64,000 nucleotides of DNA from Acidobacteriota bacterium (GCA_046724685.1 JBKOXA010000074.1:8172-72171); one strand, 5' to 3'. Positions 6,887-38,513 are shown, numbered from the stretch's first letter. Notes: generated by a model not told the origin, from the sequence alone. Translations and numbers: made by a program.

Positions 6887-6923
6887 GGTGTTGTTTCGCT
6901 AGAATAACAGAGGCAAGGGAAAG

Positions 6924-7101: not shown

Positions 7102-8049
7102 ATGCCGGCCGCCACCTCTCAGGTCGTTTCGCAACTCCAGCGCTCCATCGCGCGCGCCATTTACGGCAAAGAAGAAGCCATCCAGCTCGCGCTGATCACA
7201 TTATTCGCGCGCGGCCATCTGCTCATTGAAGACGTTCCCGGAGTGGGCAAGACCACCCTCGCCCAAGCTCTCGCAAAATCTTTTCACTGCACTTTTCAGC
7301 GCGTGCAATTCACGTCCGATCTCCTGCCCAGCGATGTGCTGGGCGTCAGCGTCTACCAACCCGACGCGCGCGAATTTGAATTTCGCCCGGGCCCACTATT
7401 CGCCAACGTCGTCCTCGCAGACGAAATCAATCGCACCACGCCACGCACGCAATCCGCTCTGCTCGAAGCCATGAACGAAACGCAAGTCACTGTGGATGGG
7501 AAAACACATCCCTTGCCTCAACCCTTCCTCGTAATCGCCACCCAGAATCCCGTCGAGCATCACGGCACGTACCCGCTTCCCGAATCACAGCTGGATCGCT
7601 TTCTGATGCGCATCAAGATGGGTTATCCGTCCCATGAAACCGAGCGCGAAATCCTGCGCCGCCGCGCGTTCGATAATCCGATCGAAAAGCTCGAGCCCGT
7701 AGCCGGCGTCAGCGAAGTACTGGCGATGCAGGAGTCCGTCACGCACGTGAAAGTGGACGCAAGCCTGCACGACTACGCTCTTGAAATCGTGAATCGCACA
7801 CGAAATTCGGATCAGCTCGCGCTAGGCGTCAGCCCGCGCGGGACCTTGATGTTGCAGCGAGCTGCGCAGGCCCGCGCTTTTCTCGAAGGCCGCGACTATT
7901 GCGTGCCCGACGACTTCAAGCAGCTAGCGGTTGCCGTCTTCGCGCATCGCGTCGTGGCCAGTGCCCGTCACGCCTCGCTGCAGAAAAAATCGGAAACGAC
8001 AGAAGCAGCCCTGCGCGAAATCGTGGATTCCGTCCGTGTTCCCGTGTAG
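7102..8049 (+). CDS. MoxR family AAA+ ATPase
   Basis: EDVPGVGKT Walker A, RVQFTSDLLPSD, LADEINR Walker B, IATQNP, LPESQLDRF. Confidence 0.95.
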   Translation: MPAATSQVVSQLQRSIARAIYGKEEAIQLALITLFARGHLLIEDVPGVGKTTLAQALAKSFHCTFQRVQFTSDLLPSDVLGVSVYQPDAREFEFRPGPLFANVVLADEINRTTPRTQSALLEAMNETQVTVDGKTHPLPQPFLVIATQNPVEHHGTYPLPESQLDRFLMRIKMGYPSHETEREILRRRAFDNPIEKLEPVAGVSEVLAMQESVTHVKVDASLHDYALEIVNRTRNSDQLALGVSPRGTLMLQRAAQARAFLEGRDYCVPDDFKQLAVAVFAHRVVASARHASLQKKSETTEAALREIVDSVRVPV

Positions 8050-8055
8050 CTTCAG

Positions 8056-9450: not shown

Positions 9451-9506
9451 AAATAGTTCGCATTGCTTGCAACGTTGGTCTTGGGCGAAGCGATGAAAAT
9501 GCTGAC

Positions 9507-10709: not shown

Positions 10710-10774
10710 CGGTTATCGTTTGGGACCGCCGACGCCCATCCGCACTGCACGGGTGCTACGATGAAGGTTCCGTT

Positions 10775-13009
10775 ATGGTCGCACGCGTATCAGTTCCGAC
10801 TGCGCCGCCACTCCCCGCAGAGCGCTTCTCTCGCGTTTCCCTTTTTCTATTGCTCCTTACAGCAATTCTCACGCTCATAGGCACCGGAAAAATCGATCTT
10901 CTCACATCGAGCGCGGCAACTCTTGCTCTGCTTTACCGCGCGCGCCGCTGGTGGTACGGCCACGAACCAGAGCTAACCTCTCGAACCGCCACTTTTCTGG
11001 TTCTTTGTTATCTTCTCTTTTTTCCCGCCGACATGTTTTTCCTCTCGCGCGGCCTTGCAGCAAATTCTCCGAACCCGCCTCTTTTTGCTGCCATGATCAG
11101 CGCGGTCCACTTCCTCCTGTTTGTGATGCTGGTACGGCTGTACAGCGCGCGCACGGACCGCGACGCGCATTTTCTGGTCATGCTGGCGTTCGCGGCCGTG
11201 CTGGCTTCCGCCGTGCTCACGGTGGATACGACTTTCCTATTTCTGTTTTTTCTATTTCTTCTGTTCGCAGTCGCTACCTACACAGGGCTTGAGCTGCGTC
11301 GCGGCGCCGCCCACGCCTTGATTCCATCCGCAGCCTCGATGCCGGGCGCGGATAAGAAATTGGCGCGCGCGCTGGGTCTTGCTGCCTTGAGTGTCTCCGT
11401 GGGAGCAATCCTTTTCGGCACAATCTTGTTTTTTCTGCTGCCGCGTGTCAGTGCCGGCTACCTCGGCAAGACAAGTCTGAATCCGACGCTTTTGAGCGGT
11501 TTTTCCGATCAAGTGGAGCTGGGACAAATCGGCGAAATCAAGAGGAGCTCCGCGGTGGTGCTGCGCGTGGAGACCGGCTCGCGCGTGAACTATCCGGCGC
11601 TACGGTGGCGCGGCAACGCTCTGGCCAATTTTGACGGAAGGCGCTGGTCGGCCCTCGCGCGCGAACCGGAAAAACTGGAGGCCAACCCGGACGGCTGGAT
11701 TCCCTTACGCGAAAGGTTTAGATCAGGCGAGATGCGCGGCGAAATTCTGCAGTTCAGGGTGCTGCAGGAGCCGATGGCATCGGATGCGCTGTTTGTCGCC
11801 GGAAATGTCCTGGCGGTACGGGGAAATTTTACGGGCGAGGCCCTCGGTGTAAGCCACCGGAACAGCTACATTTACCGCGATTCAGCCGGTTCGCTGATGA
11901 ATCCGTTCCACAATTATGTTTCCATCCGCTACACGGGGCTCTCGCAACTTCCCGCGCTGGACCGTGCGAAGCTCGCGGCGGCAGGAACCGACTATCCCGC
12001 ATCAATCACCGAACCGTACTTGCAGTTGCCGATAGACATCGACCTGAGAATTTCCGCACTGGCTCGTACAGCGACAGAGGGCCGATCGAATCCCTACGAG
12101 AAAGCCTCGGCGCTCGAAGCGTTTCTGAAAACGCGGTATGCCTATACGCTGAGCCTTAGGGGTAACCCGGGTAAAGATCCGCTGGCGCATTTCCTTTTTG
12201 AGACGCGGGCAGGACACTGCGAGTACTTTGCCTCCTCCATGACGGTAATGCTTCGCACGCTCGGAATTCCTGCCCGCGAGGTTAACGGATTCCTGCCCGG
12301 AGAATTCAACGACCTGGGCGGCGATTACATCGTGCGCGCGAGCGATGCTCACAGCTGGGTGGAGGCATATTTTCCAGGCAGCGGCTGGATCGCATTCGAC
12401 CCAACGCCTGATGCCCCCGTCGCGGCAATTAGTTTTCTGACACGGCTTTCGCAGCTTGCGGATTGGGCGGAGTTGACGTGGAGCGACTGGATCGTCGGCT
12501 ACGACGTCGCGCACCAGGCGGCACTGGCGCAGACTTTCCAGATGCGTTCTCGTAATTGGCGCGAAGTGGGAGCGTCGTGGTTCGCTGAAAAGCAGCGTCA
12601 CATGAAAGACCGGCTGACCGGATGGCAACTCCGTCATGCCAGCTTTTCTCTCGCGCTGCCGGTATTTTTGATGGCGTTGCTACTCGCCTTGCGGTATGGC
12701 TGGGTCGGCTGGCTCCTTCGGCGGATCGAGATGGCGCTTCCGCAAGGGCGGAATGCCGGCGCCAGTGCGCAGATTGCCTCGCGAATGTATGCGGAGATGC
12801 TTCAGGTGATGAGCCGCCACGGATACTCACGCAACGAAACGCAAACACCGTTTGAATTTGCGGCGGACGTCAAAGCGCCATCGCTGAGCTCTTTGGTCGA
12901 AGAGTTCACCCTACTGTATGCCTCCGCGCGTTTTGGCGGCGTGACCTGCGACGTTGCGCGGTTGCAAGAACTCCTCGGGACCATTCGCGCCGATCTGCGC
13001 GCAAGGTAA
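10775..13009 (+). CDS. DUF3488/transglutaminase-like (TgpA-type) membrane protein with a C-terminal DUF4129-like region
   Basis: Multi-TM N-terminus, GFSDQVELG, and the catalytic triad motifs GHCEYFAS (Cys), AHSWVEAY (His) and FDPTP (Asp). Confidence 0.9.
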   Translation: MVARVSVPTAPPLPAERFSRVSLFLLLLTAILTLIGTGKIDLLTSSAATLALLYRARRWWYGHEPELTSRTATFLVLCYLLFFPADMFFLSRGLAANSPNPPLFAAMISAVHFLLFVMLVRLYSARTDRDAHFLVMLAFAAVLASAVLTVDTTFLFLFFLFLLFAVATYTGLELRRGAAHALIPSAASMPGADKKLARALGLAALSVSVGAILFGTILFFLLPRVSAGYLGKTSLNPTLLSGFSDQVELGQIGEIKRSSAVVLRVETGSRVNYPALRWRGNALANFDGRRWSALAREPEKLEANPDGWIPLRERFRSGEMRGEILQFRVLQEPMASDALFVAGNVLAVRGNFTGEALGVSHRNSYIYRDSAGSLMNPFHNYVSIRYTGLSQLPALDRAKLAAAGTDYPASITEPYLQLPIDIDLRISALARTATEGRSNPYEKASALEAFLKTRYAYTLSLRGNPGKDPLAHFLFETRAGHCEYFASSMTVMLRTLGIPAREVNGFLPGEFNDLGGDYIVRASDAHSWVEAYFPGSGWIAFDPTPDAPVAAISFLTRLSQLADWAELTWSDWIVGYDVAHQAALAQTFQMRSRNWREVGASWFAEKQRHMKDRLTGWQLRHASFSLALPVFLMALLLALRYGWVGWLLRRIEMALPQGRNAGASAQIASRMYAEMLQVMSRHGYSRNETQTPFEFAADVKAPSLSSLVEEFTLLYASARFGGVTCDVARLQELLGTIRADLRAR

Positions 13010-23078: not shown

Positions 23079-24197
23079 ATGAATGAGCGTGACATTCGCT
23101 TCATGGAGCGCGCGCTCGAACTTGCGCGCAAGGGCGTCGGTCTGGCGAGCCCAAATCCCACCGTCGGCTGCATCATCGTCGGGCAAGGGGTTCACAGCGG
23201 CCAAATTGTCGGCGAAGGGTTTCATCAATATGACAGGCGCAATCACGCGGAAATTGTCGCTCTCGAAACCGCCGGAGAAAGAGCTCGCGGAGCGACAGCC
23301 TACGTCACGCTGGAGCCGTGCAACATCGCAGGGCGGACAGGTCCGTGTACCGAAGCCCTGATGAAGGCAGGGATCGCGCGTGTGGTCGCTGCGACGCAAG
23401 ACCCAAATCCCAAGGTGGCAGGACGTGGATTGGATGCATTGCGCGCCGCGGATATCATCGTTGATTCCGGGATTTGTGAATCCGAAGCGCAGCGCCTGAA
23501 TGACGGATTTGCCTGCTGGATCCGCACGGGCCGGCCGTTCGTCACGTTAAAATCCGCGATGACGCTGGACGGGCAGCTCACAATTGCCAATCAACGCAAA
23601 TCCAAAAAACGCGAATGGATCAGCTCCGAAGACTCCCGCACGGAAGTACAAAGGCTTCGCCACGGTTCGGACGCGCTGCTTACGGGCATCGGCACAATTC
23701 TCGCCGATGATCCGCTTCTCACCGACCGCAGCGGCATGCCGCGCAGGCGCCGTCTTTTGCGCGTCGTCCTCGACTCCAAGCTGCGCCTTTCGCCAAGTTC
23801 GCGAATCGTGAAATCCGCGGACAAGGACCTTCTGGTGTTCACCGCCGCCCCGCTCAAATCCGCGAAGGCTCTCAAACTGCAAGATGAAGGGGTTGAGATC
23901 GTGCAGGTTCGGGCGAAGCTCGGAATGCTTGACCTGAAAATGGTTCTGCGCGAACTCGGCGAGCGGCAGATTCTGAACGTATTGCTTGAAGCGGGGCCAC
24001 GTCTGAATGGCGCAACTCTGTCGGCGCAAGTTGTGGACCGGATATTTTTGTTTTACGCCGCGAAGCTAGCGGGCCACACCACAACTCCGTTCGCAGCGGG
24101 AGCCGCCGCAAGACTGGATTTACGGCAAATGGCGTTTCGCACTTTTGGCCCGGACTTTGCCGTGGATGCCCTGCTCCATAACCATTTCAATGCTTGA
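23079..24197 (+). CDS. ribD: Bifunctional riboflavin deaminase/reductase RibD
   Basis: SPNPTVG, HAE, TLEPC...GPC zinc motifs; KSAMTLDG and GIGTILADDPLLT reductase motifs. Confidence 0.95.
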   Translation: MNERDIRFMERALELARKGVGLASPNPTVGCIIVGQGVHSGQIVGEGFHQYDRRNHAEIVALETAGERARGATAYVTLEPCNIAGRTGPCTEALMKAGIARVVAATQDPNPKVAGRGLDALRAADIIVDSGICESEAQRLNDGFACWIRTGRPFVTLKSAMTLDGQLTIANQRKSKKREWISSEDSRTEVQRLRHGSDALLTGIGTILADDPLLTDRSGMPRRRRLLRVVLDSKLRLSPSSRIVKSADKDLLVFTAAPLKSAKALKLQDEGVEIVQVRAKLGMLDLKMVLRELGERQILNVLLEAGPRLNGATLSAQVVDRIFLFYAAKLAGHTTTPFAAGAAARLDLRQMAFRTFGPDFAVDALLHNHFNA

Positions 24198-24305: not shown

Positions 24306-25796
24306 ATGAGCGCCACAGCAGTTTCAGATATCCGAGTTCCGCATTTCATCGCAGGAGAGTGGGTCAACTCCAATTCGACGGAGTGGCAGGACCTGGTGAA
24401 CCCCGCAACGCACGCGTCGCTCGGAAAGGTTCCTCTGGCCAGCATTGCGGAGGTAAACGCCGCGGTGGAGGCCGCTGCAGCCGCGTTTCCGGATTGGCGC
24501 CGCACTCCGGCCGAGGACCGCATCCAGCCGCTCTTCAAATTGAAGATGCTACTTGAAGAGCACATCGACGAACTCGCGCGCCTGATCACGATCGAAAACG
24601 GAAAAACCTTCGCCGAAGCGAAAGCCGAGCTTCGCCGCGCGATTGAAAACGTCGAGGTGGCGTGCGGCATTCCGATGATGATGCAGGGCTACAACCTTGA
24701 AGACGTCGCGCGCGGCATCGACGAAATCATGATTCGACAGCCTATGGGGGTCGTAGCGGCCATCACCGCCTTCAATTTTCCGGCGATGATTCCTTTCTGG
24801 TTCTTGCCCTACGCGATCGCAACCGGCAACACGATGGTACTGAAGCCAAGCGAGCGTGTACCGCTTACCATGAAGCGCGTGTTTGAGCTGCTGCAGCAAA
24901 TCGGCTTGCCCAAAGGCGTTGTGAACCTGGTGAACGGCGGCAAGGCCGCCGTGGACACGATTTTGGATCATCCGAAGGTTCGAGCAGTCAGCTTCGTCGG
25001 CTCGACGCCGGTTGCGAAATACATTTATGCTCGGGCCACAGCCAGTGGCAAGCGCGCGCAATGCCAGGGTGGAGCGAAAAATCCGGTAATTGTGCTGCCG
25101 GATGCGGATATGACAATGACCACCAACATCATCAGCGACAGCGCATTTGGCTGCGCGGGCCAACGGTGTCTGGCCGTTTCCGTTGCTGTCGCTATCGGTG
25201 ACGCGCAGAAGACTTTTCGCGATGCGATTGCGGAGTCCGCGTCAAAACTTCGGGTCGGCAACGGCCTAGAAGAAGGTGTCCAGATGGGCCCGGTGATCAC
25301 TCCGCAGAGCAAATCGCGGATTGAAACGCTGATCGGCGAGGGTGAAAAGTCAGGCGCAAAGATTTTGGTGGATGGTCGGAACACGAAAATCCAGGGCTAT
25401 GAGGCTGGCAACTTCGTGAAGCCGACGATTCTCGATGGTGTTCCCATCGAGAGCGAACTCGCGCACACGGAAATCTTCGGGCCGGTGCTGAGCCTCGTCC
25501 ACGCCGAGGATTTGGACCAAGCGATGTCGTTCCTAGAAAAGAATCCTTTCGGCAATCAGGCTTCGCTCTTCACTTCCAGCGGCTCGGCTGCGCGCCGCTT
25601 CCGCTATGAGGCGCCAGCCGGAAACATCGGCATCAACATCGGCGTGGCCGCTCCCATGGCATACTTTCCCTTCAGCGGCTGGAAGGACAGCTTTTTCGGC
25701 GACCTGCACGGCCAGGGGCGCGACGCCATCGAGTTCTACACCGACAAAAAAGTTGTGGTCGAGCGCTGGGCGAAAGAACACTCGCGCAAGTTCTAG
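24306..25796 (+). CDS. mmsA: CoA-acylating (methyl)malonate-semialdehyde dehydrogenase
   Basis: [74 protein letters not shown]. Confidence 0.92.
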
Positions 25797-25903
25797 GACC
25801 TAGATCCTATCCGGTTTTTCCCGTCTGCCGGTGCGGCGGTGATGATGATGTGCGTGTGCGTGTGCTCGTAAGTCTTCTGTGATAAAACTCCTCTCTGGTC
25901 ATT

Positions 25904-27232
25904 GTGTCCTCTGAACCCAGCCCTTCTTCGACGAAACCCGCCGCAAAGGCCGGCATTTTTTCGTTCGTTTTCGTAATGTATTCCTACACTACGGGTGGAC
26001 CCTTCGGCCTCGAGGCGCAAGTCACCACTTCCGGCCCCGGCGTCACCCTTCTCTATCACCTGCTGATTCCTTTCTTCTGGTGCATCCCGATTTCTCTCGT
26101 GGCCGCAGAACTCACTACTGCGATGCCTGTGCAGGGCGGCTTCTATCGCTGGGTGCGCGCGGCGTTTGGCGATTTCTGGGGATTTCTCGCCGGCTGGTGG
26201 AACTGGACCGCGTCGTTTCTTCTCGGCAGCGCGTACGCAGTCCTCTTTGCCGACTATCTTTCCCCCTGGTTTCCCGCGCTGCAGGGCTGGCGTCACACGC
26301 TCATCGCGGTTGCACTCGTTGCGCTCATCACCTGGATCAATGTTCGCGGAATTCAGCTCGTTGGACGCATCTCCACGATTCTCGAGATCGCCGTTCTGGT
26401 TCCGATTCTGGCCATGGTCGCAATCGGACTCGCGCACTGGCGTCATAATCCGTTTGTTCCGCTCACGCCACCGCACAGGCCGTGGTACGAAGTCTTCGGC
26501 GTCGGCCTCGCTCTCGGAGTCTGGCTTTACTCCGGGTATGAGCAGCTTTCATCGGTTGCGCAGGAAGTTGAGAATCCGCGTCGCAATTACCCGCTGGCAC
26601 TCGCGATTGTGGTTCCCATGTCCATTGCGGCGTATTTTCTTCCGACGTTTGCGTCGCTCGCGGCCCTCAACAACTGGCAGGACTGGAAGGAGGGTTACTT
26701 CACCACGGCGGCGGGTCTTTTGGGTGGTCCCTTGCTGGGTATTGCCATGACACTCGCGGCGATGATCGCCAACGTTTCGCTGCTGAACGCAACCGTTTTG
26801 GCCACAACGCGCATGCCATTCGCGATGGCGGAAGACGGTTTTCTGCCCGTTCGCCTGACGCACCTACACCAGCGCTACGGAACGCCGGCCGCCGCGATTA
26901 TTGTTTCCGGCCTCGTGTATGCCCTGCTTACGATCCATAATCTCGCGGAGCTTATTACTGTTTACGCGTGGTTGCGGGTGGCCACCACCGTCATGACTGC
27001 GCTTTCGCTCTGGAAGCTCCGCAAAACCCGGCCGTCAATGGAGCGGCCATTTCTGATCCCGGGTGGAAAATTTGGCTTGTTTTATTCGGTCGCCGCGCCT
27101 GTTCTTATGGGAATTGTCGCATTCGCTGGCAGCATTCTGAGTGCTGGCCACTTTGTCCGCGTCTGGGGGCCAGTGGGGATTCTTCTAGGCCCGCTGGCTT
27201 ACTTGTTACTTCGCCGCCGCCTGCCTAGCTGA
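25904..27232 (+). CDS. APC family permease, probably a polyamine transporter (PUT/RMV1-like)
   Basis: About 12 TM helices and the TM1 motif YSYTTGGPFGLE, resembling the GGP[FY]GxE of eukaryote-type polyamine uptake transporters. Confidence 0.8.
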   Translation: MSSEPSPSSTKPAAKAGIFSFVFVMYSYTTGGPFGLEAQVTTSGPGVTLLYHLLIPFFWCIPISLVAAELTTAMPVQGGFYRWVRAAFGDFWGFLAGWWNWTASFLLGSAYAVLFADYLSPWFPALQGWRHTLIAVALVALITWINVRGIQLVGRISTILEIAVLVPILAMVAIGLAHWRHNPFVPLTPPHRPWYEVFGVGLALGVWLYSGYEQLSSVAQEVENPRRNYPLALAIVVPMSIAAYFLPTFASLAALNNWQDWKEGYFTTAAGLLGGPLLGIAMTLAAMIANVSLLNATVLATTRMPFAMAEDGFLPVRLTHLHQRYGTPAAAIIVSGLVYALLTIHNLAELITVYAWLRVATTVMTALSLWKLRKTRPSMERPFLIPGGKFGLFYSVAAPVLMGIVAFAGSILSAGHFVRVWGPVGILLGPLAYLLLRRRLPS

Positions 27233-28520
27233 CCCAATCCAAAAACTTGTACCACGCGCCGGCAAATGGCAAGAACCACGGCTTGCCGTTGTAAAGTCCC
27301 AGCGGCGCACCGGGAAACGGAATTCCCGCAAACGGATTATCATCCTTGCCCGTGAGGATTGCTTCGGCAATCTTTTTTCCGAGCAGGGTCGCCATGGCCA
27401 CACCGTGTCCGGCATAACCCACGGAAAAATACATGCCATCCATTTTCCCTGCATGTGGCATGATGTCGAACGCAAAATCCAGGGTCCCACCCCAAACGAA
27501 CTCGACTCTCGTCTGGCCCAGTTGCGGATAGACTTTGATCATTCCATCGCGCAAGATCCGAGCGCTCTCACGAACCGTGTTTTCGTTCTCCGGGAAAAAT
27601 GCCGCGCGGCCGCCGAATAGCATCCTTTTATCGGGTGTCAGTCGGTAGTAATACAAATAATTCTTCGAATCGTAGATCATACGATTGCGGGGACTCAATT
27701 CCGTGGCAAGTATTTCAGGCAGTATTTGGGTCACAATGATAAAGGAGCCGATTGGGATAATTCTTCGCTGTAGAGATCTTGTGATTCGGCTTGTGTAGCC
27801 GCTCGTAGCGACTAGGATTTCGCGGGCATGCAGCGCGCCACGGGACGTGGTCACGTTCCATCCTGGTCTGCCATCGCGCGATGCACGCTGTAAATCGGTC
27901 ACACATGTTTTTTCGTGAATCTCGGCGCCCGCTCGCGCCGCGGCGAACCCTAGACCCGATACATACCGCGCTGGATTTACTCCCGCGCTGACCTCATCCA
28001 CGATCCCGCCGTGATAAATCGCCGAACCGATCTCGCCGGGCAGGTCGGCTTTTTCGACAATCCGCAGCTTGTGCGCAAATTCGCGCTCAATTGTTTCCGC
28101 ACCGCGACGAAATTCCTCAAAATGTCTTGCCTTACAGGCGACTTCGAGGTGTCCGCATCGCGAAAAATCGCAAGCGATGTTTTCCTCGCGGACAATCGTT
28201 TCGACGAAGTCGATGGACTCAAGCGAAGCCGCGTACATCCGCTGGGTGGCTTCCCGGCCGTATCGCGCAACGAGGGTCGGCGTCCCGAGCTTCAGCCCGC
28301 TCAAAACCATGCCGCCGTTGCGGCAACTTGCGCCCCAGCCCACGTTTTCGGCTTCGAGGACGGCGACCTTTGCGCCACGCTGGGCCAAGGTTCGCGCCGC
28401 AGATAACCCTGTAAACCCACCACCAATGACGGCAACATCTGCAGACTGCGGCAACTCGCGGGGAGGAATCTTTGGCGGTTGAAGAGTGGTCAGCCAGAAA
28501 TTTCTCTGTGCGGGAGTCAT
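27225..28520 (-). CDS. FAD-dependent oxidoreductase, PuuB/gamma-glutamylputrescine oxidase-like (DAO family)
   Basis: [49 protein letters not shown]. Confidence 0.8.
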
Positions 28521-30448
28521 ACCTTGTGGCTGCCCGCAGCACCACGAATCCCTGGCAGCTCCTGCACCGCGCGATACGCTTCGTCAATTGCTGCGTCGGT
28601 GTAGGCTCTGGCTGCCGAATCGGAATTGGCGATCGTGATGTTTCCGAATGGCTTCCGCCCAATCACGTTTGGCCGCGGACCTCCCGGCAAGTCGCGATCC
28701 GAATACCAGTCATATTCATATGCGTAGCCATGGGCCCAGCGATTCACGGTAATCGACTGAACGTCGCGCGCCGCGTCGAAGCCGACATCTCCCAGCATTC
28801 GCTGCAACTGTTCGCGAGTCTTCCGTTCAATAGCTTCGAACGTTGTGCTCAGCAATTCATAGCGTCCCGCTCGGTATTGGTCTTGCCGCGGCGCACCCGG
28901 ACTGCAGGGGGCTCGCAGCATGAACAACACAGCAGGTTCTTCCGGCTTGCTTGGAAACTTGTATTGGCCGATGCTGACCGGAAAATCCAGTGCCACGAGT
29001 GAGTGATATCCGCCGGGCGCAATGATCTGGTGAATACCCAGCGTCGCGAAAGGTTTCCAATTGCGGATCGCAACATGGGTGTAGAGGAACGGCGCCTTCA
29101 CAGAGTAATGCAACGCCTTCTTCTGCGTTTCAGGTAGCTCGGGACACAAGTACGGCACCATCGCGTTGTAGCAAGCCAGCACGCAGTGGCGTGCATTTGC
29201 TCGCTTCAACTTTCCTTCGCGCACGTATGCCACACGAACCACGGGTGGAGCTCCAGCCCCATGATTGTGCTTTGCATTCACCACCGTACTGCCGAGCCGT
29301 ATGCGCACTGCGCTCCCCTCGACGTCGAGCTTGCTGTAATCCGCCTTTGCAGTGACGACGTCTTCCATGGTGCTCCCCGGAACGCTTCCGGGGACCAGTT
29401 GACGAACCAGGAGGCGAGCAATCGTCGCGTTTCCGTCCGGGAAGTGAAAAATATACGGCTCGCCTCTTTCCGGATCGCCCAGGCCCAATCCGTCGAAAGC
29501 TGCGTAGGAAAACGAACCGTAGTCGTCCGGATTCTCGTAGCAGGCGAACGCGGAGATCGCTTCAATCCCGACGGCAAACAGGTCGTGCGAATATTTCTGG
29601 AAAAAGGCCAGCGATTCGGGCAACGCTCCGCAATACCTGATCAGAAAATCCGCGTAGCTGACGGTTTTGAGGAAGGCAATTTTCTGCGCTCTGGTTTTTC
29701 CCGCCAGATAGTCCTTTTTCTGCGTATAGAGCCGGGCGATGTCTTTCCGCGCGGCGGCGGAAAGGGGCGCTTTTGCAAGAAAGTCCGCCCACGGTGTCGA
29801 ACCCACCCCTGGCACCAATTTGTCCTCGCCGAACGTTTCTTTGTCGAAGAAGCAGGCAGTGCCGAGGTTCGCGTAAAGTCTCTGATCGTAAGCCTGATAG
29901 AACTTCTCGACGTCGATGCCCAAGTCTTTCAGCAAAGCCTTCGCCACGTTGCTGTACTCGCCCGGGCTTTCGATCGCCTGCGCGCCGCCATTCGCAAGCA
30001 GCAGCCTTCCGCTGACTTCAAATTCATTTCGCCGCGCGTGCCCGCCGAAATCATCGTGATTGTCGAGGATCAGAATGCGCGGGTGTTTGCCAACGGATTT
30101 CCGATAAAAATACGCAGCTGCCAAACCGCTGATTCCGGCTCCGACCACAATAAGGTCATACGATTCCGCATCGTCCTCGACCGTTCCAAGCGCCTCCCAC
30201 GATTTTCCATCCCGCAACTTGTGCGCAGTTTCAAAAACCCGATTCTGGTCGCCGCGCAACCCGGTGAGCGCCGGCGGATACGCCGGCCGCTCACTGCCGC
30301 CCGTTTCCCCACCCGGGGCCCGCAGACCGAGCGTGGCGCCCTCCAACGCAGCAGCGCCCACCGCCATCGCCGCCCCGTCCAGAAAGTCACGGCGGGTGAT
30401 TTTGCGATGCATTCCGAGTTCCCGATCTCGCGAGTCTTCGGCCATCAA
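28517..30448 (-). CDS. Tat-exported flavoprotein, spermidine dehydrogenase (SpdH)-like
   Basis: TRRDFL twin-arginine motif, [15 protein letters not shown] motif, [44 protein letters not shown]. Confidence 0.78.
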
Positions 30449-31422
30449 TGAAACGCTGCCCCCAGCATGTCAATCATCAGGCGCACGGCAGTTTGCGCCG
30501 TGCGGCCGCTCGGGTCCCTGTAAGGATTCACCTCGACCACATCGAATCCCACAAGTTTTCCCTTTGCCGTGACACCCTTCAACAGCTCATCCAACTCACG
30601 AAAACTCAGGCCGTCTGGCTCCAGTGTTCCAGTTCCAGGTGCAAGTGTAGGATCCATGACATCGACGTCGAGGGAGATATAAATATTTTCGCTCGCAGGA
30701 ACCTGCGATAGCGCCCAATCCACGCCCTTCGCGTGAATTTGCTCGGAAGTCACAATCGCGGAGTGAATTTTTCGCGCATTGCCGATCGCTTCGGGATCAT
30801 TGGCGAGCCCGCGCATTCCGAGCTGCACAACCTTCTTCACATGCCGGAGTTTCGCTGCTCGGTTCACCCACGACGCATGGTCGAGGTTCCCGGGCTCACC
30901 GGTCCACGTGTCCAAGTGCGCGTCGAAATGAATCAGCGTCACATCCTTGTCGAGCGCTCGAACCACAGGAAAGGTGACGCTGTGATCGCCACCAAGGACA
31001 ATGGGAAACGCTGATTTCTCGATGATTTTCTTAACGGCGGCGGTGATCTTGTCGTCGGTCTGCGCCGGCACAGTCGGAAACACCAGAACGTCGCCGACAT
31101 CGGCCCAACGCTTGCCCTTCAGAACGGTTCGATCGCCGTCAATGTAGTAAAAGCCTTCGGTCAGATCGTGATTGTATTCTTGCGAACTTTCGCGCAAGTC
31201 TCGCGGGCCATAGCGTTCGCCGGGCTGGCCCCAAGTGCCTTCGTCGAACGGAATACCGAGAACGGCAAAATCGGCTTTCAAATCGTCGAGGTTTGTAACG
31301 TACGGCGCGCCGAGGAAGGTCCGTATTCCGACGAACGTCGGTTGCGATTGCCTGCTTGCGCCTGCGGACGAAAGAGTTATTGGCAGGCTCAAGGCGATGA
31401 GCGTCAGCACAAATCGTCGCAT
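30445..31422 (-). CDS. Agmatinase/ureohydrolase family protein with an N-terminal signal peptide
   Basis: [25 protein letters not shown] and VEVNP Mn-binding motifs. The N-terminus [22 protein letters not shown] looks like a Sec signal. Confidence 0.85.
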
Positions 31423-31566: not shown

Positions 31567-32214
31567 ATGTTTACTGGCATCATCGAGCATCTCGGTACGA
31601 TTTCTCGCTTCGAAACGACTTCGAGTGACGGCAAACTCATCGTTCACGCGCCTTCGCTGGCGCGGCAGCTCGCAGTCTCCGCCAGCATCGCGGTTAATGG
31701 CTGCTGTCTGACGGTGGTTCATCATGATAACGAGAACTTTTCGGCTGATCTCTCGGGCGAAACACTTGCCAAGACGTCTTTTGCTTCTCTCAAGGCGGGA
31801 GTGCGGGTGAACCTCGAACAGCCTCTTACGGCAGGACGGGAATTTGGCGGTCATTTTGTGCTCGGCCATGTGGATGGCACGGCGCGAGTCGTTCACCTCA
31901 ACCCTGAAGGTGATAGCTGGCGTTATGGTGTGGAAATTCCACCGGATTTGGCGCGTTACGTAGTCTCGAAGGGCTCCATCACGATTGACGGAATCAGCCT
32001 CACTGTGGCCCGCTGGCAAGATCGGATTGCGGAAATCGCGGTGATTCCCTACACCTACGAACACACGAATATCCGCGATCGTGTTCCCGGCGATCAGGTC
32101 AATCTGGAGGCCGATATTTTGGGAAAATATATCGAGCGCTATCTGGGCCAGCGCGAATGGTCAATCGATTCGAGGCACCTTGGCGTGGACGACCTCATCC
32201 GCCAGGGCTTTTGA
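31567..32214 (+). CDS. ribE: Riboflavin synthase (alpha chain)
   Basis: MFTGII start, SIAVNGCCLTV, VNLEQPL, GGHFVLGHVDG, GSITIDGISLTV, VNLEADILGKY. Confidence 0.96.
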   Translation: MFTGIIEHLGTISRFETTSSDGKLIVHAPSLARQLAVSASIAVNGCCLTVVHHDNENFSADLSGETLAKTSFASLKAGVRVNLEQPLTAGREFGGHFVLGHVDGTARVVHLNPEGDSWRYGVEIPPDLARYVVSKGSITIDGISLTVARWQDRIAEIAVIPYTYEHTNIRDRVPGDQVNLEADILGKYIERYLGQREWSIDSRHLGVDDLIRQGF

Positions 32215-32239
32215 TCGTTGTCGAGTCCGGCGCGTTTCG

Positions 32240-33676
32240 CTAAGCGACCTCTCGCCGCCGTTGCCTTGCACCTCGAAAATACAAAATCAAACCTAACGCC
32301 ACGGCCGCAAGGGTGGTGCCAATCACTTTGGTTACAAACAGCTGGCGATTCGATGAATCGCCTGGCGGAAAAATCGACACGATGATGGACAACAATGTTA
32401 CGGAAAACGCCAGAATGCAGGCAATCCAGACGCCGACCTTACCGCCAGGGATCAGGACGGCCTGAGGATTTTCACTGCGATCGGGGCGTCCCGCAAGTTT
32501 GATGGCCGCGGCGAACATGTACAGGAACGGGATAAAATAAAGAATGATGGTTATATCGATGACAATCTGATAGGCGCCGCGGGTAGTTTCGTTGACTTGG
32601 CTGAGCAGCAACACCAGCGCCGAGGCGACAGCTTGTACGATGATGGAAATATACGGCGTGCGCCATCGCGGGTGAACTTTTCCAAATGCTTTCGGCAAAT
32701 ATCTGTCGATTCCGACAACGAACGGTACGCGCGCTATTCCAGCGACGGTACTTCCAACGCCACCAGCGTTGCCGACCGTAACCAAGCAGGCAGCGAGCAC
32801 CCCGACAAAGCCGATCTTCAGCGCAACGGAACCGACCGTAATTGCGTGGAAAACACCGCTCTTAGGATCAACATCAACGGAGGGAACGAGCGAGAGAACG
32901 GAGAACGTTCCAACAATATACATCGCGGCGATCAGGGCGGCGGCGGTCAATGCCGCCCGAGGCAGCGTTCTTCGCGGGTCGCGGATCTCGCCGCTCATCG
33001 CGGATACCAATTCGAGTCCAGTGAACGCAAATGCGATCTGAGACCAGAAATTTACTGTGTCCCAGTTCCAGACAGGCATCATATTCGTCCAGGTAAAGTG
33101 CGTGGCCGAGCCGTGCTCGAGCCACAACACGCCGGCGAGACCCACGAGAATCAACAAGGGCAGATACGTGGAAACACCCCCTGCGTTTTGCAGCCATTTG
33201 CCGATGTTGAGGCCGATGATATTCAGTATCACCGCCACAAACAGCAATCCGAGGGAGCCTGCGAGCAGAAATGTCCTGTCCTGCGACAACTCGACGCCTT
33301 TGTGACCGATAACGTAGGCGCTCATCGAAGTGCTGGCCAGCAACAAACCGGGAAAATAAAAGATCGTATAGATCCAATAGGTCCATCCGGCAACAAATCC
33401 GTGAAAATCACCAAACGCCTCTTTGGACCATACGTACAAGCCGCCTTCCTCCGGAAAACGCGAGGACAATTCATTGATAACCAACGCCATGGGCACAAAG
33501 AAAAGAACTGCAGCAAGAACCCACAAACTGATTGAGGGCGTGCCATTGTGCGCCGCAGCTGCAATCCAGCGCGGACCGAGCACAGTTGCAATATTGAAGA
33601 GGAGCACGTCCCAGAAACCCATTTCGCGGCGAAGTTGACTGCGCGGATCGGACGAGCCGACCGAGGACTGGCTCAC
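32240..33676 (-). CDS. APC family amino acid/polyamine permease
   Basis: About 12 TM helices, ELSSRFPEEGGLYVW, FAFTGLELVS, FGKVHPRWRTP. Confidence 0.88.
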   Translation of the reverse strand: MSQSSVGSSDPRSQLRREMGFWDVLLFNIATVLGPRWIAAAAHNGTPSISLWVLAAVLFFVPMALVINELSSRFPEEGGLYVWSKEAFGDFHGFVAGWTYWIYTIFYFPGLLLASTSMSAYVIGHKGVELSQDRTFLLAGSLGLLFVAVILNIIGLNIGKWLQNAGGVSTYLPLLILVGLAGVLWLEHGSATHFTWTNMMPVWNWDTVNFWSQIAFAFTGLELVSAMSGEIRDPRRTLPRAALTAAALIAAMYIVGTFSVLSLVPSVDVDPKSGVFHAITVGSVALKIGFVGVLAACLVTVGNAGGVGSTVAGIARVPFVVGIDRYLPKAFGKVHPRWRTPYISIIVQAVASALVLLLSQVNETTRGAYQIVIDITIILYFIPFLYMFAAAIKLAGRPDRSENPQAVLIPGGKVGVWIACILAFSVTLLSIIVSIFPPGDSSNRQLFVTKVIGTTLAAVALGLILYFRGARQRRREVA

Positions 33677-34482
33677 AGGACCACGTCCATCGCGGGGATC
33701 AATTGGTCCTGCATGCGGAAATTGTGAAAGAAGAGATCGGGCGAGTTTTCAAATTCCGTCCACGAGGAGAACACGCTAGCCTCGCCCTCCTGGAGGAAAA
33801 CGATGGTGTCGGCCAATTTTTTCGCGAGGTGGGTGTCGTGGGTAACGACGATCGAAGTTTTGTGGAATTTTTCCTTCAGCCGCAAAATCAGGTCGCCCAT
33901 GTGCGCGGCCATAATCGGGTCGACCATGGTGGTCGGCTCGTCGTACAGAATCGCTTCGGGATTCTGCGCGAGAGCCCGCGCGATCGCCACAGCCCGTTTC
34001 GTTCCCGTGGACAATTCGCTCGGCACTTTGTCCAAAACATCGTCCACCTCCAACTCCTTGGCGAGTTTGTCGGTGTACGCCTCGACATCGGCGTCGGTAA
34101 CTCCGGGCTGGTCCCTCAGCGGAAACGCAATGTTGTCGCGGACCGTCAGGGAATCGAAGAGCGCGCCGGACTGGAACACCATCGTCACCTTTCGCCGCAC
34201 CCCGTAGAACTCCTGCTCGGAGTAACTTGTGACGTCCACACCATCAACGAAAACCTGGCCGGAGTCTGCGCGCAGAAATCCCATGATGTGCTTCAGCGAG
34301 ACGGATTTTCCCACGCCACTTCGCCCCATGATTACGCAAGTCTCTCCGCGCTTTACGGCAAAGCTTACTTGCTTGAGCACCGGTCGCTCGTCGAAGGCTT
34401 TTGAAACCTGGCGGAATTCAAAGTAATTGACGGAATTTCCCCCCGTCGCGCCCGGCAGATTCGTGGTCGACGTCTCGCTCAC
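33673..34482 (-). CDS. ABC transporter ATP-binding protein (MlaF/Ttg2A-like)
   Basis: Walker A GRSGVGKS, Q-loop VFQSGALFDSLTV, signature LSTGT, Walker B ILYDEP, VTHD. The probable start is GTG at 34482. Confidence 0.88.
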   Translation of the reverse strand: MSETSTTNLPGATGGNSVNYFEFRQVSKAFDERPVLKQVSFAVKRGETCVIMGRSGVGKSVSLKHIMGFLRADSGQVFVDGVDVTSYSEQEFYGVRRKVTMVFQSGALFDSLTVRDNIAFPLRDQPGVTDADVEAYTDKLAKELEVDDVLDKVPSELSTGTKRAVAIARALAQNPEAILYDEPTTMVDPIMAAHMGDLILRLKEKFHKTSIVVTHDTHLAKKLADTIVFLQEGEASVFSSWTEFENSPDLFFHNFRMQDQLIPAMDVVL

Positions 34483-35128
34483 CTTTTCCCCGTTCCCAGG
34501 CCCGCAGCGCAACCTCGTAATCCTGCGGCGTATTCATATTCCAGAAAAGTTGTCCCGCGCTATCAAACCGTTTCCAGTGCTTCTCGTCAAGGACTTCCGT
34601 GTGCAAGTGCTGCATGGCGTCGGCCACTTTGCGCACACCTTCGTTGAATGCGGCTTGCAGCGGAGCCGCGGCCGAGGTACGCCAGCAGGCGCACAACGGC
34701 TCCAGCCCGTGCGCAGAGCGTGGAACGATGACGTCCCCATCGCATGCTTGTGCTCGTTCGCAGAGATACGCAAGCCATTCGCGAGTCAGAAAGGGCATGT
34801 CACAGCTTACGATCAGATTCCGCTCGAGCCCGCTTCCGGATTCTTCGGTTGCTTTCAGCGCTGTGATGATTCCGCCAAGAGGGCCTTCGTCAGGCCAACG
34901 ATCCTCCACAACGGAAACATCAACGTCGCTGTAGCGGCCGCGAGGTGCAATCACACATACAGAACCGGTCGCCGTTTGGACGAATCCGCAGATCCGGGAC
35001 AATAGGCTCTTTCCGTCAAATTCGACCAGCGCCTTGTCTGTTCCAAATCTCCGGCTTGCGCCTCCAGCCATGACGTAGCCGGCGACTTTACTCTCGATGA
35101 TTTTGTTTTTTCCTACATCCAGATTCAT
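34418..35128 (-). CDS. mobA: Molybdenum cofactor guanylyltransferase
   Basis: MAGGASRRFGTDKA, GPLGGI, VSCDMPFL, LEPLCACW, WNMNTPQDY. I trimmed the start to ATG at 35128. Confidence 0.9.
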   Translation of the reverse strand: MNLDVGKNKIIESKVAGYVMAGGASRRFGTDKALVEFDGKSLLSRICGFVQTATGSVCVIAPRGRYSDVDVSVVEDRWPDEGPLGGIITALKATEESGSGLERNLIVSCDMPFLTREWLAYLCERAQACDGDVIVPRSAHGLEPLCACWRTSAAAPLQAAFNEGVRKVADAMQHLHTEVLDEKHWKRFDSAGQLFWNMNTPQDYEVALRAWERGKGERDVDHESAGRDGGKFRQLL

Positions 35129-35136
35129 CGGCTTCG

Positions 35137-36543
35137 CTACTCTTCGCTTGAATCCTGCAATTCTCTGCCGGCCCTGCGGATGCCAAGCTCGCGCAATTTT
35201 TCCTGCAAGCTCTGCCGGTGCAGGCCAATGGTTGCGGCGGTACGCGAAACATTCCACCGGTGCGAAACGAGTTCCTTGGTGATCCAGGCGACTTCGAATT
35301 TTCGCTTGGCCTCGCGAAAGTCCCGTTCACTCAAGCCGGCATCGACTCCGTTCGCGCCGGCCTTGCCCGTCAGTTGTTGACCGCTGACGACCTCACCAGG
35401 CAAATCGGTTGGAAGAATTTCCTCCTCGCGGCACATCACCACACTGCTTTCGAGCGCGTTCTTCAGTTCGCGGACATTTCCCGGCCAGTCATAGGCTTCG
35501 AGCGCGGCCAGCGCGGCCTTGTTTAGCCGCGCCGAACGGCCGATCCGTGCTCCGTGCATTTTCAAGAACGCATCGGCAAGCACGCCGATGTCGCGTTTGT
35601 GCGACCGGAGCGGCGGCAATTCAATCGTCACGACACGCAACCTGTAAAAGAGATCGTCGCGAAATTTTCCGCTTCGTATTTCAGCAGGCAAATCGCGATG
35701 CGTCGCGCTGATCACCCGCACATCGACGGGAATCGTTTGCGAACCGCCTAGCCGCTCAATCGTTCGATTTTCCAGAGCGCGCAGCACTTTTGCCTGAGTC
35801 ACAGGATTCATGTCGCCGATTTCGTCCAGAAACAGGGTGCCGCCGTGCGCCTGCTCGAATTTTCCCCTTCTTTGCTGCGCCGCGCCGGTGAACGCACCGC
35901 GCTCATACCCAAAAAGTTCCGACTCAATTAACGTCTCTGGCAACGCGGCGCAATTCACCGCGACAAAGGGTTTTCCGGAGCGCGGAGAGCGGGCGTGAAT
36001 CTCCTGCGCCAGCAAGTCCTTGCCGGTGCCGCTTTCGCCGAGGATGAGCACGGTGGAATCCGTCGGCGCAACGCGATCGGCAATCTCGAACGCGCGGCGC
36101 ATCTCCTCCGACCGTCCGATCATTCCACCGAACTGCCCCTCCGTGGCGAGCTGCCGACGCAACGAATCGTTTTCCTGCTCCAGTGAAACCAGCTTCAATA
36201 GATTCGCGACTCTTTGCCGCAATTCGTCCAGTTCAAATCCCTTCACCAGGTAGTCGGCTGCCCCGAGCCTAAGCGCGTCGACAGCGGTCTTGGCGGCATC
36301 CAGTGCCGAAATCATCAGAACCGGGATGTTGTTTCCCTGCTCCCGCACCCATTTCAGGAACGACAATCCATCTTGCCCGGGAAGCACCACATCCAGCAGC
36401 ACCAGATCAGGCTTTTCCGTGAGCAAGGCATCGCGGGCCGCTTCGGCGGAGTCGGCTTCCGCAATGCGATATTTCGATTCGAGTGCCCGCCGCAATCCGT
36501 AGCGTGCCGCCGGTTCGTCGTCCACAATCAGAATCGTCTTCAT
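35137..36543 (-). CDS. Sigma-54-dependent response regulator (NtrC family)
   Basis: Receiver domain (LIVDDE, LLDVVLP), [30 protein letters not shown], and a Fis-type HTH. The start is MKTIL at 36543. Confidence 0.95.
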
Positions 36544-38513
36544 TTTGCTTCCTCTCGCGCCGCATCTCTCAACAACGGAAGCCACACCGAGAACCTTGTT
36601 CCACCTCCGTCGGTCACAGGGCTCTCTAGTTCAAGCGTTCCGCCGGCCTCAGCTACGCGCCGTGCCACTATGGCCAGCCCGAGTCCCGTCCCTTGCGTCT
36701 TGGTCGTAAAGAACGGCTGCAAGACCTTTTCACGCAATTCGGGTGGAATTCCATTGCCGTCGTCGTCTACGCGAAGGAGCGCCTTGCCGTCCTGCCGTGC
36801 TGCGCTGACTCGCACATGCCCGTCTGCAGTGGCCGCTTCGAGACTGTTCAGAATCAGGTTGGAGAGAATCTCGCTCACTGTTTCTCTTCCCGCAACCACG
36901 TGAGCGGCTCCATCCGACCAAGTCTCAAGCTGAATTCCCTTACGCTCCGCTTCGCGGCGCAATACTTCAGTTACTTCCTTAATGACCTCGGTGACATCGC
37001 ATCCCGCGCTTGTTTCCCCCAAGACGGCGGGCCGGCTGAATTGCAAAAGTTGGCCCAGCTTGCCGGAGAGGCGTGAAATTTCGGCCAAAACCATTTGGCT
37101 TTCGGACTTCAGCGAGTCCGGCATTTCGGGACTTTCCAGTTGAAGCTGCAGAATCGTCTTGATCGAACCCAGCGGATTCTTGAGATTGTGGGAAATGCTC
37201 GCGGCCATCTGGCCCAGCGCCGCCAGGCGCTCCCGTTCCGCCAGTTCCCTTTCCAAACGCACTTTCTCCTCGATCGCCTGGCATAAATCGAGTGCGCCCG
37301 GCAGCTGCCCGCACAAGTATTCCAGTGCCACCCGCGTTTCCCCCGAAAGCATGGCACCATGCGTCTTTACCTCAAGGATGCCCAGGGTCTGCCCTGCCTG
37401 GTGTACGCGGAATTTATTCTCAGAATCGGCGGACTCGCCTTCGGCCGCGACGGGCTCAGAGTTAAGCAATGAAAGTTTGACGTCGGCCAGTTCCAGTTGT
37501 TCTTTGACCCGAGTTTGAACGAAGCTATGCAATTTCGCCGGGTCACCTAACCGCGCCACCTGCTGGATTGCGCCCATTGTTCTGTGGGCTCGGTTGATTT
37601 CACCTTGTGCTGTGGCACGAAGGAGCCTGCTGACAAACCTCTGTAGCGGCTCAAAAAATGCGACCAGAACAAAAACAAGTATGGCCGCGGTAGCCTCGGG
37701 TGGAAGAACGGGCTCCAGCCACACGCTCATCCGCCGGATTACGCTCAGATAGAGAAGCGCTAGAAATGTAACAAATACGGCGTAAACCAAATTCCTCTGG
37801 CGTCCGATCTGCAGAAAATTGTGTTTTTCGACGTAGTAGACCAGCGCTCCGAACGGGAGGATCGGGTGTAGAGCCAGCATTGTGCCCAATTCAGCCCGAT
37901 CAACGCCTCCAGCTCGAAGATGTACATCAAAGACTAGAAAAGCACCCACAGCCAACCACACGGCCGCCCATTGGTGGAAGCGCCGCTGCGCCTTAACCGA
38001 GGCGGCCTTGAAGAAACGAAGTTGCCACCAAGAGCAAGCCACCAGAGCCGCCAAAAGCCAAGTCTTGTAGTCCTTTCCGAAGATGTTGATCGGTGTAAAA
38101 AAATCGAAGGGGCTCTCTCGGACGAGGTGGCGCGTATGGAGCGCCACGAAAACCAAGGGAAGATACGCGGCTACCAACCAAGCGGTTTTGGCTGCGCGGC
38201 CAGGAATGAGAACCCGATCTTTCGCGTACTCGACATGAAGGTGCAAAAGCAAAGCTGGCATTGTCCATAGCGCGAGAACCAGTAGCAGCTGTGAAAAGGT
38301 CTCCAGAAGGACGGGAGGCTGTGAGTAATAGATTTGTGCGTTGAGGGCGAGGAGCGAGCCGCTGTAGAAGAAAAAGAGGGCGAGGCAGAGGAAAAAGAAC
38401 ACGCGCTCGAAGTTGCGTTGGCGACGGTAGCCGAGAATGACCACCATCCAGAAAAGCATGAGAAGTGTTCCGGCAGTAAAGCCGATGAGGCGGAAATAGA
38501 CGAGGAATTGCAC
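36540..38513 (-). CDS. Sensor histidine kinase with a multi-TM (about 7-8) N-terminal domain
   Basis: H-box ISHNLKNPL, N-box SNLILNSLEA, DDGNGIP, FFTTKTQGTGLGL. It overlaps the RR start by 4 nt. Confidence 0.92.
   Translation of the reverse strand: MQFLVYFRLIGFTAGTLLMLFWMVVILGYRRQRNFERVFFFLCLALFFFYSGSLLALNAQIYYSQPPVLLETFSQLLLVLALWTMPALLLHLHVEYAKDRVLIPGRAAKTAWLVAAYLPLVFVALHTRHLVRESPFDFFTPINIFGKDYKTWLLAALVACSWWQLRFFKAASVKAQRRFHQWAAVWLAVGAFLVFDVHLRAGGVDRAELGTMLALHPILPFGALVYYVEKHNFLQIGRQRNLVYAVFVTFLALLYLSVIRRMSVWLEPVLPPEATAAILVFVLVAFFEPLQRFVSRLLRATAQGEINRAHRTMGAIQQVARLGDPAKLHSFVQTRVKEQLELADVKLSLLNSEPVAAEGESADSENKFRVHQAGQTLGILEVKTHGAMLSGETRVALEYLCGQLPGALDLCQAIEEKVRLERELAERERLAALGQMAASISHNLKNPLGSIKTILQLQLESPEMPDSLKSESQMVLAEISRLSGKLGQLLQFSRPAVLGETSAGCDVTEVIKEVTEVLRREAERKGIQLETWSDGAAHVVAGRETVSEILSNLILNSLEAATADGHVRVSAARQDGKALLRVDDDGNGIPPELREKVLQPFFTTKTQGTGLGLAIVARRVAEAGGTLELESPVTDGGGTRFSVWLPLLRDAAREEAK

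Follow-up and report, generated by a model that had tools for sequence, protein, structure and literature searches.

A 64,000-nucleotide stretch of an Acidobacteriota genome (GCA_046724685.1, JBKOXA010000074.1:8172-72171; called the window below, with positions counted from its first nucleotide) carries a block of five adjacent genes at 24306-31422, in the slot between ribD and ribE. We propose that this locus is a lineage-specific polyamine-catabolic cluster organized around a periplasmic spermidine dehydrogenase (SpdH), a reading for which we find the case evenly balanced. Judged from sequence, the SpdH homologue is translationally coupled to a flavin adenine dinucleotide (FAD) oxidase of the PuuB subfamily, the oxidase has a conserved APC-superfamily permease as its partner, and a true (methyl)malonate-semialdehyde dehydrogenase (MMSDH) has been relocated beside them. 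In one sublineage, a gene predicted to encode a ureohydrolase with a Sec signal peptide lies immediately upstream of the SpdH gene. The features of the block and the edges of its slot are as follows, with families assigned by Pfam, NCBIfam and PDB searches.

24306-25796, plus strand: MMSDH, CoA-acylating, of the MmsA/BauC/IolA type; 496 amino acids
25904-27232, plus strand: APC-superfamily permease, specificity not assigned; 442 amino acids; the oxidase's conserved partner across Acidobacteria
27225-28520, minus strand: cytoplasmic DAO-family FAD amine oxidoreductase of the PuuB/AmaA/Pbf-like subfamily; 431 amino acids; core gene
28517-30448, minus strand: SpdH homologue with a twin-arginine translocation (Tat) signal, FAD/haem-b spermidine dehydrogenase family; 643 amino acids; core gene
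30445-31422, minus strand: arginase/agmatinase-family ureohydrolase with a Sec signal peptide; 325 amino acids; accessory front-end gene of the block
23079-24197, plus strand: ribD (Pfam RibD_C and deaminase domains), left edge of the block's slot
31567-32214, plus strand: ribE, riboflavin synthase (two Pfam Lum_binding domains), right edge of the slot

An earlier interpretation of this DNA, which we call the sequence-only reading, had described five adjacent genes, and all five open reading frames were found exactly at the coordinates above. It had also taken them for a single five-gene system. We compared 19 loci that share the arrangement, termed class A loci (16 species-representative loci and 3 metagenome contigs, the window excluded). 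The SpdH gene is followed directly by the oxidase gene in 19/19 of these, and MMSDH lies next to ribD in 19/19, in a broken form in one locus, L067. The permease is intact in 11 of the 19 and persists as a remnant in L067. The ureohydrolase is found in only three of the 15 evaluable species loci, namely the window, L005 (a fragment at a contig end) and L010, as well as in the metagenome contigs L271, L274 (GCA_037025185.1) and L280. Given this scarcity, and given that members of the ureohydrolase's clade usually stand alone, the conserved system comprises at most four genes and not five: it is SpdH, the oxidase and MMSDH, usually with the permease, and the ureohydrolase was added in one sublineage. 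Contigs with this acidobacterial block or its oxidase (70-80% identity) also appear under the labels Dongiaceae, Dormiibacterota, Eisenbacteria, Gammaproteobacteria or Verrucomicrobiia (L004, L007, L010, L201 and L219); these non-acidobacterial records are probably mis-binned or mislabelled metagenome-assembled genomes (MAGs).

The SpdH homologue aligned with Pseudomonas aeruginosa SpdH (PaSpdH, PDB 7D9F) over residues 17-631 against 3-619, at 519.6 bits (E 1e-154). Its twin-arginine motif, ITRRDFL, is matched by ISRRDFL in PaSpdH, an FAD fingerprint is present, and H76 (FETAHKL) and H573 (NRWAHGY) align with His54 and His562, the axial ligands of the surface haem b of PaSpdH (PMC12564564). 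In an alignment of 68 full-length homologues drawn from 74 loci, the two haem-ligand histidines are kept in 68/68 and 67/68 sequences, and the arginine pair occurs in all 65 full-length homologues that cover its position. These features point to a full-length, cofactor-competent relative of PaSpdH with a Tat signal, in agreement with the Tat-exported SpdH-like flavoprotein predicted earlier. The sequence-only reading had also considered an extracytoplasmic SpdH step unusual. It is instead the norm of the family rather than a peculiarity of this locus, given the invariant arginine pair, the experimental validation of PA3713 (P. aeruginosa SpdH) as a Tat substrate (PMC6085387), and the periplasmic location already proposed in print (PMC11107197).

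The SpdH stop and the oxidase start share the sequence ATGA, an overlap of 4 nt. The junction between the ureohydrolase and SpdH genes reads TTGATG, which gives a 4-nt overlap if SpdH begins at TTG and a 1-nt overlap (TGATG) if it begins at ATG, the likelier start. The 4-nt overlaps claimed for these three genes thus hold between SpdH and the oxidase, and hold between the ureohydrolase and SpdH only with the less likely start codon. The permease and oxidase genes are convergent and overlap by 8 nt, and the block therefore consists of two converging units (ribD-MMSDH-permease and ureohydrolase-SpdH-oxidase), not one operon.

The history of the slot bears on whether its genes share a function. 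Of five sister genomes checked, three have ribD about 1.2 kb from ribE, in the order ftsY-ribD ... ribE. In the one sister genome whose gap was read, it is filled by a NodB/polysaccharide-deacetylase-like gene (L268:2681-3955, minus strand), so the ribD-ribE gap carries different genes in different genomes. MMSDH adjoins ribD in class A loci only. The 26 other genomes from the same GTDB genus carry an MMSDH (about 71% identical) that does not adjoin ribD and is most often found with genes for a glucokinase and a Rieske oxygenase, usually between the two. Since the genes of the block sit at other places in sister genomes, the block was assembled in one lineage and not inherited whole, and three independent relocations into a single 7-kb slot argue for a shared function. 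So does its decay. In L067 (8001-13142), SpdH carries three frameshifts, the oxidase one, and MMSDH three frameshifts and a stop; only residues 293-442 of the permease are left, while the flanking APC2, ribE, ribD and ftsY are intact. This may be either coordinated pseudogenization or a local assembly error, and the joint breakage of four genes argues for a shared function. Lineage-specific clustering and joint decay would thus both back the logic put forward in the sequence-only reading, in which a polyamine yields a C3 amine and then malonate semialdehyde. A recent foreign island was ruled out, as GC content is flat at 0.55-0.60 across the block and the arrangement is common to about 20 related loci.

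The oxidase is a DAO-family protein (Pfam DAO, 216 bits), and its sequence contains no signal peptide. It is 31% identical to Escherichia coli PuuB over 413 residues (189 bits), supporting the earlier prediction of a cytoplasmic PuuB-like enzyme at the level of the subfamily. The models for AmaA pipecolate oxidase (182 bits) and TIGR03329 (168 bits against a cut-off of 633) score about as well as the PuuB match, both far below cut-off. The window's genome, which is 94% complete, holds a single glutamine-synthetase-family (Gln-synt_C) gene and no PuuA paralogue, and PuuB's own task on gamma-glutamylated amines is therefore unlikely for this oxidase; a Puu-type gamma-glutamyl route was rejected as unlikely on the same ground.

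The permease scored 169 bits on Pfam AA_permease_2, its best NCBIfam match was TIGR00909 (148 bits against a cut-off of 557), and its identity to E. coli PuuP is 21% over 286 residues. With so low an identity and no NCBIfam equivalog near its cut-off, the PUT-like assignment made previously was not borne out, and a PuuP/PUT-type putrescine permease was rejected. By sequence, the protein is a generic APC transporter.

The oxidase and permease also occur together where SpdH is absent. Oxidase orthologues (about 70% identity) were found in at least 72 other acidobacterial species without SpdH, and 59 of 72 such loci have a permease orthologue convergent with that of the oxidase. In these loci a second, sarcosine-oxidase-like DAO-family gene precedes the oxidase orthologue; the run of this gene, the PuuB-like oxidase and the convergent APC permease recurs in at least 48 acidobacterial species (L163-L234, for example L169:4836-8713). 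The window's genome has no orthologue of this second flavoprotein, and SpdH takes its position.

MMSDH passed the TIGR01722 cut-off comfortably (581.5 bits against 448.5, over model positions 1-477 of 477) and has the catalytic cysteine in a GQRC motif, so that the MmsA-like dehydrogenase named in the sequence-only reading is secure. The statement that the block lacks a PuuA-like glutamylase and an aminotransferase is correct for the window. It does not extend to three relatives (L001, L002 and L004), in which a class-III, gamma-aminobutyrate-transaminase-like aminotransferase gene lies between the permease and MMSDH genes. Aminotransferase plus MMSDH is the classic pairing for conversion of beta-alanine to malonate semialdehyde. 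The window's genome has no orthologue of this in-block aminotransferase, its best matches being 38-40% identical and on other contigs. One further contig of the genome (C67, about 5349-12471) has an amine-catabolism-like cluster of an aldehyde dehydrogenase, a class-III aminotransferase, an aldehyde dehydrogenase, an APC permease and an aminotransferase, which could supply steps lacking in the block.

On this basis, we envisage the following route. SpdH would cleave spermidine, spermine or norspermidine-type polyamines in the periplasm to 1,3-diaminopropane and an amino-aldehyde, 4-aminobutanal being the one expected from spermidine, and the permease, where present, would take up a product. 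The FAD oxidase would then deaminate a C3 amine oxidatively without gamma-glutamylation, converting diaminopropane to 3-aminopropanal or beta-alanine to malonate semialdehyde, and so replace or supplement a transaminase; MMSDH would turn malonate semialdehyde into acetyl-CoA. There is precedent for the oxidase's proposed role in PbfD2, an FAD oxidase of a related subfamily that replaces the transaminase acting on the omega-amine 2-aminoethylphosphonate (PMC10590968). Where the exported ureohydrolase is present, it would strip the amidino group from a guanidino-amine in the periplasm, the leading candidate reactions being agmatine to putrescine and N1-aminopropylagmatine to spermidine, and this step would broaden the range of polyamines usable by the cluster.

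Several observations weigh against the proposed polyamine-catabolic cluster. The substrates of all five proteins are inferred from sequence only. The main weakness concerns the oxidase: it has orthologues that work without SpdH and does not evolve obviously faster than they do, and because the oxidase-permease pair looks functionally unchanged from SpdH-less lineages, its substrate may have no connection with the products of SpdH. Beta-alanine was not oxidized by the PbfD enzymes (PMC10590968). No aldehyde dehydrogenase for 3-aminopropanal or 4-aminobutanal is present in the block, and MMSDH and the permease lie on the strand opposite to SpdH and the oxidase. MMSDH has no other close copy in the genome (the best of the rest is 34% identical) and would also serve valine catabolism. 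The permease, the aminotransferase and the ureohydrolase are each dispensable in some loci, and the frameshifts of L067 could be errors of long-read MAG assembly. Finally, distant SpdH homologues (at most 64% identity) are mostly solitary in Acidobacteria, so SpdH needs no dedicated partner.

These points feed the leading rival, which we regard as possible and appreciably less probable than the cluster: that the genes are neighbours without a common pathway, gathered in a permissive ribD-ribE slot. SpdH and the exported guanidino hydrolase would then be stand-alone enzymes, as both usually are elsewhere; the oxidase and permease would be an independent import-and-oxidize unit for some other amine or amino acid; and MMSDH would serve valine, beta-alanine or inositol catabolism. 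The retention of the oxidase-permease pair in SpdH-less loci speaks for this rival. The tree agrees with it too: class A oxidases form one clade nested among the SpdH-less orthologues with no obvious rate jump. The occupation of the ribD/ribE gap by a different gene in sister genomes and the two converging transcription units also fit. A chance gathering sits less easily with the three independent relocations into the same 7 kb, the ATGA coupling of SpdH to the oxidase, the insertion of an aminotransferase between permease and MMSDH in three loci, and the joint decay of four genes in L067 between intact flanks.

The ureohydrolase is the part of the locus in which we found the most that is new. 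It belongs to the arginase family (Pfam Arginase, 241 bits) and scored below the cut-offs of the agmatinase model TIGR01230 (158.3 against 174.3) and of NF002564 (192 against 302). Its best PDB match was Deinococcus radiodurans agmatinase (1WOG, 180 bits), and it matched GbuA and GpuA at 123-128 bits. The binuclear-metal motifs GGDHS, FDAHLD and SLDVDVMDP align with those of 1WOG, GpuA and GbuA. At the N-terminus is a 22-residue leader with predicted cleavage before S, ahead of the conserved mature start. Close relatives each have a different hydrophobic N-terminal peptide with an AxA-like site just before a conserved PTFVG(V/I)RTF, and 108 of the 120 nearest protein clusters passed a simple test for an N-terminal extension with a hydrophobic core, most of the 12 exceptions being truncated gene calls. 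Genuine signal peptides typically show this pattern, in which the leader diverges and the start of the mature protein is conserved. The exported agmatinase-family ureohydrolase of the sequence-only reading is thereby upheld as a prediction, with its family, its metal motifs and its Sec signal peptide. A literature search on exported or periplasmic ureohydrolases found nothing relevant.

Close relatives of this protein are few among species representatives, with only six in the collection (L010 and L075-L079) before identity falls to 37% or less, and abundant in metagenomes, where more than 120 clusters share at least 73% identity. In a maximum-likelihood tree the exported clade is monophyletic (support 100/99) on a long stem and sister to 1WOG (96/90, with a long-branch caveat), apart from SpeB, GbuA, GpuA and the guanidine hydrolase Sll1077. 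Among the sequences gathered here, the clade was met only in Acidobacteria-type contigs. A GdmH (Sll1077-type) guanidine hydrolase was rejected as an identity for the protein, at 149 bits against 180 for 1WOG and with Sll1077 and 9FEK lying across the root split.

Relatives at 73-80% identity occur in unrelated contexts (L075, L077-L079, P0058, P0088, P0094 and P0096), and the SpdH-linked ureohydrolases of the window's lineage form a derived subclade (97/99). A separate linkage is seen in L076 (56-9763), where a TonB-dependent outer-membrane protein, two Tat-SpdH paralogues, a Sec-ureohydrolase and a Sec-exported Amidohydro_3 protein are encoded in this order, all on one strand and with gaps of 104, 11, 41 and 78 nt; L076:56-9763 looks like a utilization locus for a modified polyamine. 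The unrelated contexts and the separate linkage in L076 suggest that the exported ureohydrolase normally works alone and has been recruited beside SpdH genes at least twice, in the window's subclade and in L076. In L276 (6107-12235), a solitary exported ureohydrolase (P0058, 77% identical) lies just downstream of a gene for a DtxR/MntR-type metal-dependent repressor, a neighbour that hints at Mn-dependent regulation; on its other side are an M23 peptidase, two aldehyde dehydrogenases and a BKACE-family gene. As to the enzyme's purpose, the window's genome has no urease beyond a 28-bit partial match and no urea carboxylase above cut-off. Urea scavenging is thereby weakened: harvest of urea nitrogen is no obvious purpose of the ureohydrolase, and the unmasking of an amine is more likely.

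The same protein underlies a second rival, an oxidative arginine/agmatine route, which we consider improbable. The ureohydrolase would act as a guanidinobutyrase, agmatinase or arginase, the SpdH-like enzyme would oxidize a guanidino-amine (for example, agmatine to 4-guanidinobutanal), and the cytoplasmic oxidase would act on the amino compound that results, much as in the pathways of cyanobacteria and pseudomonads that combine an arginine oxidase or dehydrogenase with guanidinobutyrase. Start-stop coupling of the ureohydrolase to SpdH would suit such a route, as would the ureohydrolase's score below the agmatinase equivalog cut-off and its relation to GbuA and GpuA; moreover, the substrates of SpdH homologues of less than 50% identity are stated to be not known (PMC12564564). 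However, 12 of the 15 evaluable species loci have SpdH, the oxidase and MMSDH and lack the ureohydrolase, MMSDH suits C3 units and not the C4 units derived from guanidinobutyrate, and the tree groups the ureohydrolase with the D. radiodurans agmatinase and not with GbuA/GpuA.

A third explanation, to which we attach an equally low probability, gives SpdH a non-catabolic role: in the periplasm it would trim exogenous polyamines or the cell's own, for detoxification or to provide diaminopropane or norspermidine for the envelope, and its neighbours would clear by-products. Such a role has been a matter of speculation for P. aeruginosa. A part for periplasmic SpdH in norspermidine formation has been proposed (PMC11107197), and the only Spermine_synth-domain genes in the window's genome are atypical fused ones. 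The wider contexts of SpdH in Acidobacteria also lend this explanation support: in many Terriglobia MAGs the dcw cell-division/cell-wall cluster holds a solitary Tat-SpdH, which sits between murG and ftsW and is read from the other strand (L012, L013, L016, L018 and similar, with SpdH at about 8001-9900). Against it, the genes linked to SpdH include those for an MMSDH that forms acetyl-CoA, for an aminotransferase and for a permease, a set that points to assimilation of carbon and nitrogen. Another group of distant SpdH homologues adjoins genes of the beta-ketoadipate pathway, and tandem SpdH paralogues stand beside TonB-dependent-receptor-like outer-membrane proteins in L025, L042 and L076.

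The polyamine-catabolic reading also has a bolder form, speculative and in our estimate unlikely, in which soil Acidobacteria possess a periplasmic disassembly line for guanidino- or acyl-modified polyamines. Here the exported ureohydrolase clade and Tat-SpdH paralogues would act in sequence, and the cytoplasmic PuuB-like FAD enzyme would be a transaminase-independent diaminopropane/beta-alanine oxidase feeding MMSDH. The line could take as substrates N1-aminopropylagmatine and hydroxycinnamoyl conjugates of agmatine or spermidine from plants. In L076, the exported amidohydrolase and the TonB-dependent outer-membrane importer would join the line.

Beyond the block, ribE adjoins it in those class A loci whose contigs extend to that side. 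The window continues (31567-36585) with ribE, a second APC permease (32240-33676, minus strand), an ABC ATPase, a MobA-like nucleotidyl (NTP) transferase and a sigma-54 response regulator (35137-36585, minus strand); this run is kept beside the block wherever a class A locus is long enough to include it, and in metagenome contigs a histidine kinase gene comes after it. Scans for regulatory elements gave little. An Rfam scan of the whole window found nothing but a single tRNA, and no riboswitch close to the block or to the rib genes; a sigma-70 promoter and terminator scan was not above shuffles; and the window's 86 matches to the sigma-54 -24/-12 pattern, where 78 were expected, show no enrichment. 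One match to this unenriched pattern, TGGCCCGGACTTTGC (24146-24160, plus strand; one mismatch to the -24/-12 consensus), falls within the 3' end of ribD and precedes the MMSDH start by 146 nt.

Soil and plant litter are rich in polyamines and guanidino compounds, which are rich in nitrogen, and their use by the dominant, poorly cultured Acidobacteria is largely obscure. The oxidase, permease and MMSDH that accompany SpdH could fill in the route, so far poorly defined, by which its products enter central metabolism with no gamma-glutamylation. A large exported arginase-fold clade extends an enzyme class that is generally treated as cytoplasmic, and the oxidase-permease module, widespread in Acidobacteria, is a further lead. 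Current knowledge is not overturned; known families are extended to a new compartment and a new gene arrangement.

The overall logic of the block is similar to that of a Pseudomonas branch of polyamine catabolism, in which spermidine is converted to diaminopropane, then to beta-alanine and to malonate semialdehyde. The transaminase BauA and the malonate-semialdehyde dehydrogenase BauC reportedly form this beta-alanine/diaminopropane branch in P. aeruginosa, as Yao et al. are said to have described in 2011. Like the BauA/BauC branch, the block links a true MMSDH (TIGR01722) to polyamine-cleaving genes, and three relatives add a class-III aminotransferase. Unlike it, the window and most relatives have an FAD oxidase in place of an in-block transaminase, and the genome lacks a gamma-glutamylpolyamine synthetase. 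To our knowledge, Pseudomonas spdH has not been reported to be clustered with an oxidase, MMSDH or ureohydrolase, whereas the window's SpdH gene shares start-stop coupling with that of a PuuB-like oxidase and, within its sublineage, with that of an exported ureohydrolase. The two SpdH proteins themselves (for P. aeruginosa, PA3713; PDB 7D9F-7D9J; EC 1.5.99.6) are alike in their full-length homology at 520 bits, Tat signal, haem-b histidines and FAD fingerprint, and both are expected to be periplasmic (PMC6085387, PMC11107197).

With the E. coli Puu pathway (PuuP-PuuA-PuuB-PuuC-PuuD), the block has in common the oxidase's relation to PuuB. It differs in that the genome has no PuuA paralogue, the permease is only distantly similar to PuuP, and there is no PuuC or PuuD in the block; the first step here is a predicted periplasmic C-N cleavage and not a cytoplasmic glutamylation. 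The PbfB/PbfC/PbfD enzymes (PMC10590968) are likewise DAO-family and PuuB-related, deaminate an omega-amino compound oxidatively and can replace the transaminase of their pathway. As the window's oxidase falls far short of the TIGR03329 cut-off, has no phosphonatase genes nearby and would need to accept a substrate, beta-alanine, that Pbf enzymes refuse, the analogy is one of logic only. The ureohydrolase shares the arginase fold and all binuclear-metal ligand motifs with 1WOG, its nearest solved relative, and with SpeB, GbuA, GpuA and GdmH. It differs from these in forming a separate clade below the agmatinase cut-off whose members have Sec signal peptides; in the alignments, 1WOG, SpeB, GbuA, GpuA, GdmH and relatives from other phyla have none.

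The sequence-only reading had presented the locus as an undescribed system. What we found is a new arrangement of known enzyme types, each protein falling in or near a known family, and the five-gene system is looser than was claimed. Compared with the Pseudomonas branch, the block differs in four respects: its genes are arranged differently, an FAD oxidase takes the place of glutamylation or transamination, one sublineage adds an exported arginase-fold enzyme, and the block is confined to a subclade of soil Acidobacteria. Its most original element is the clade of exported ureohydrolases.

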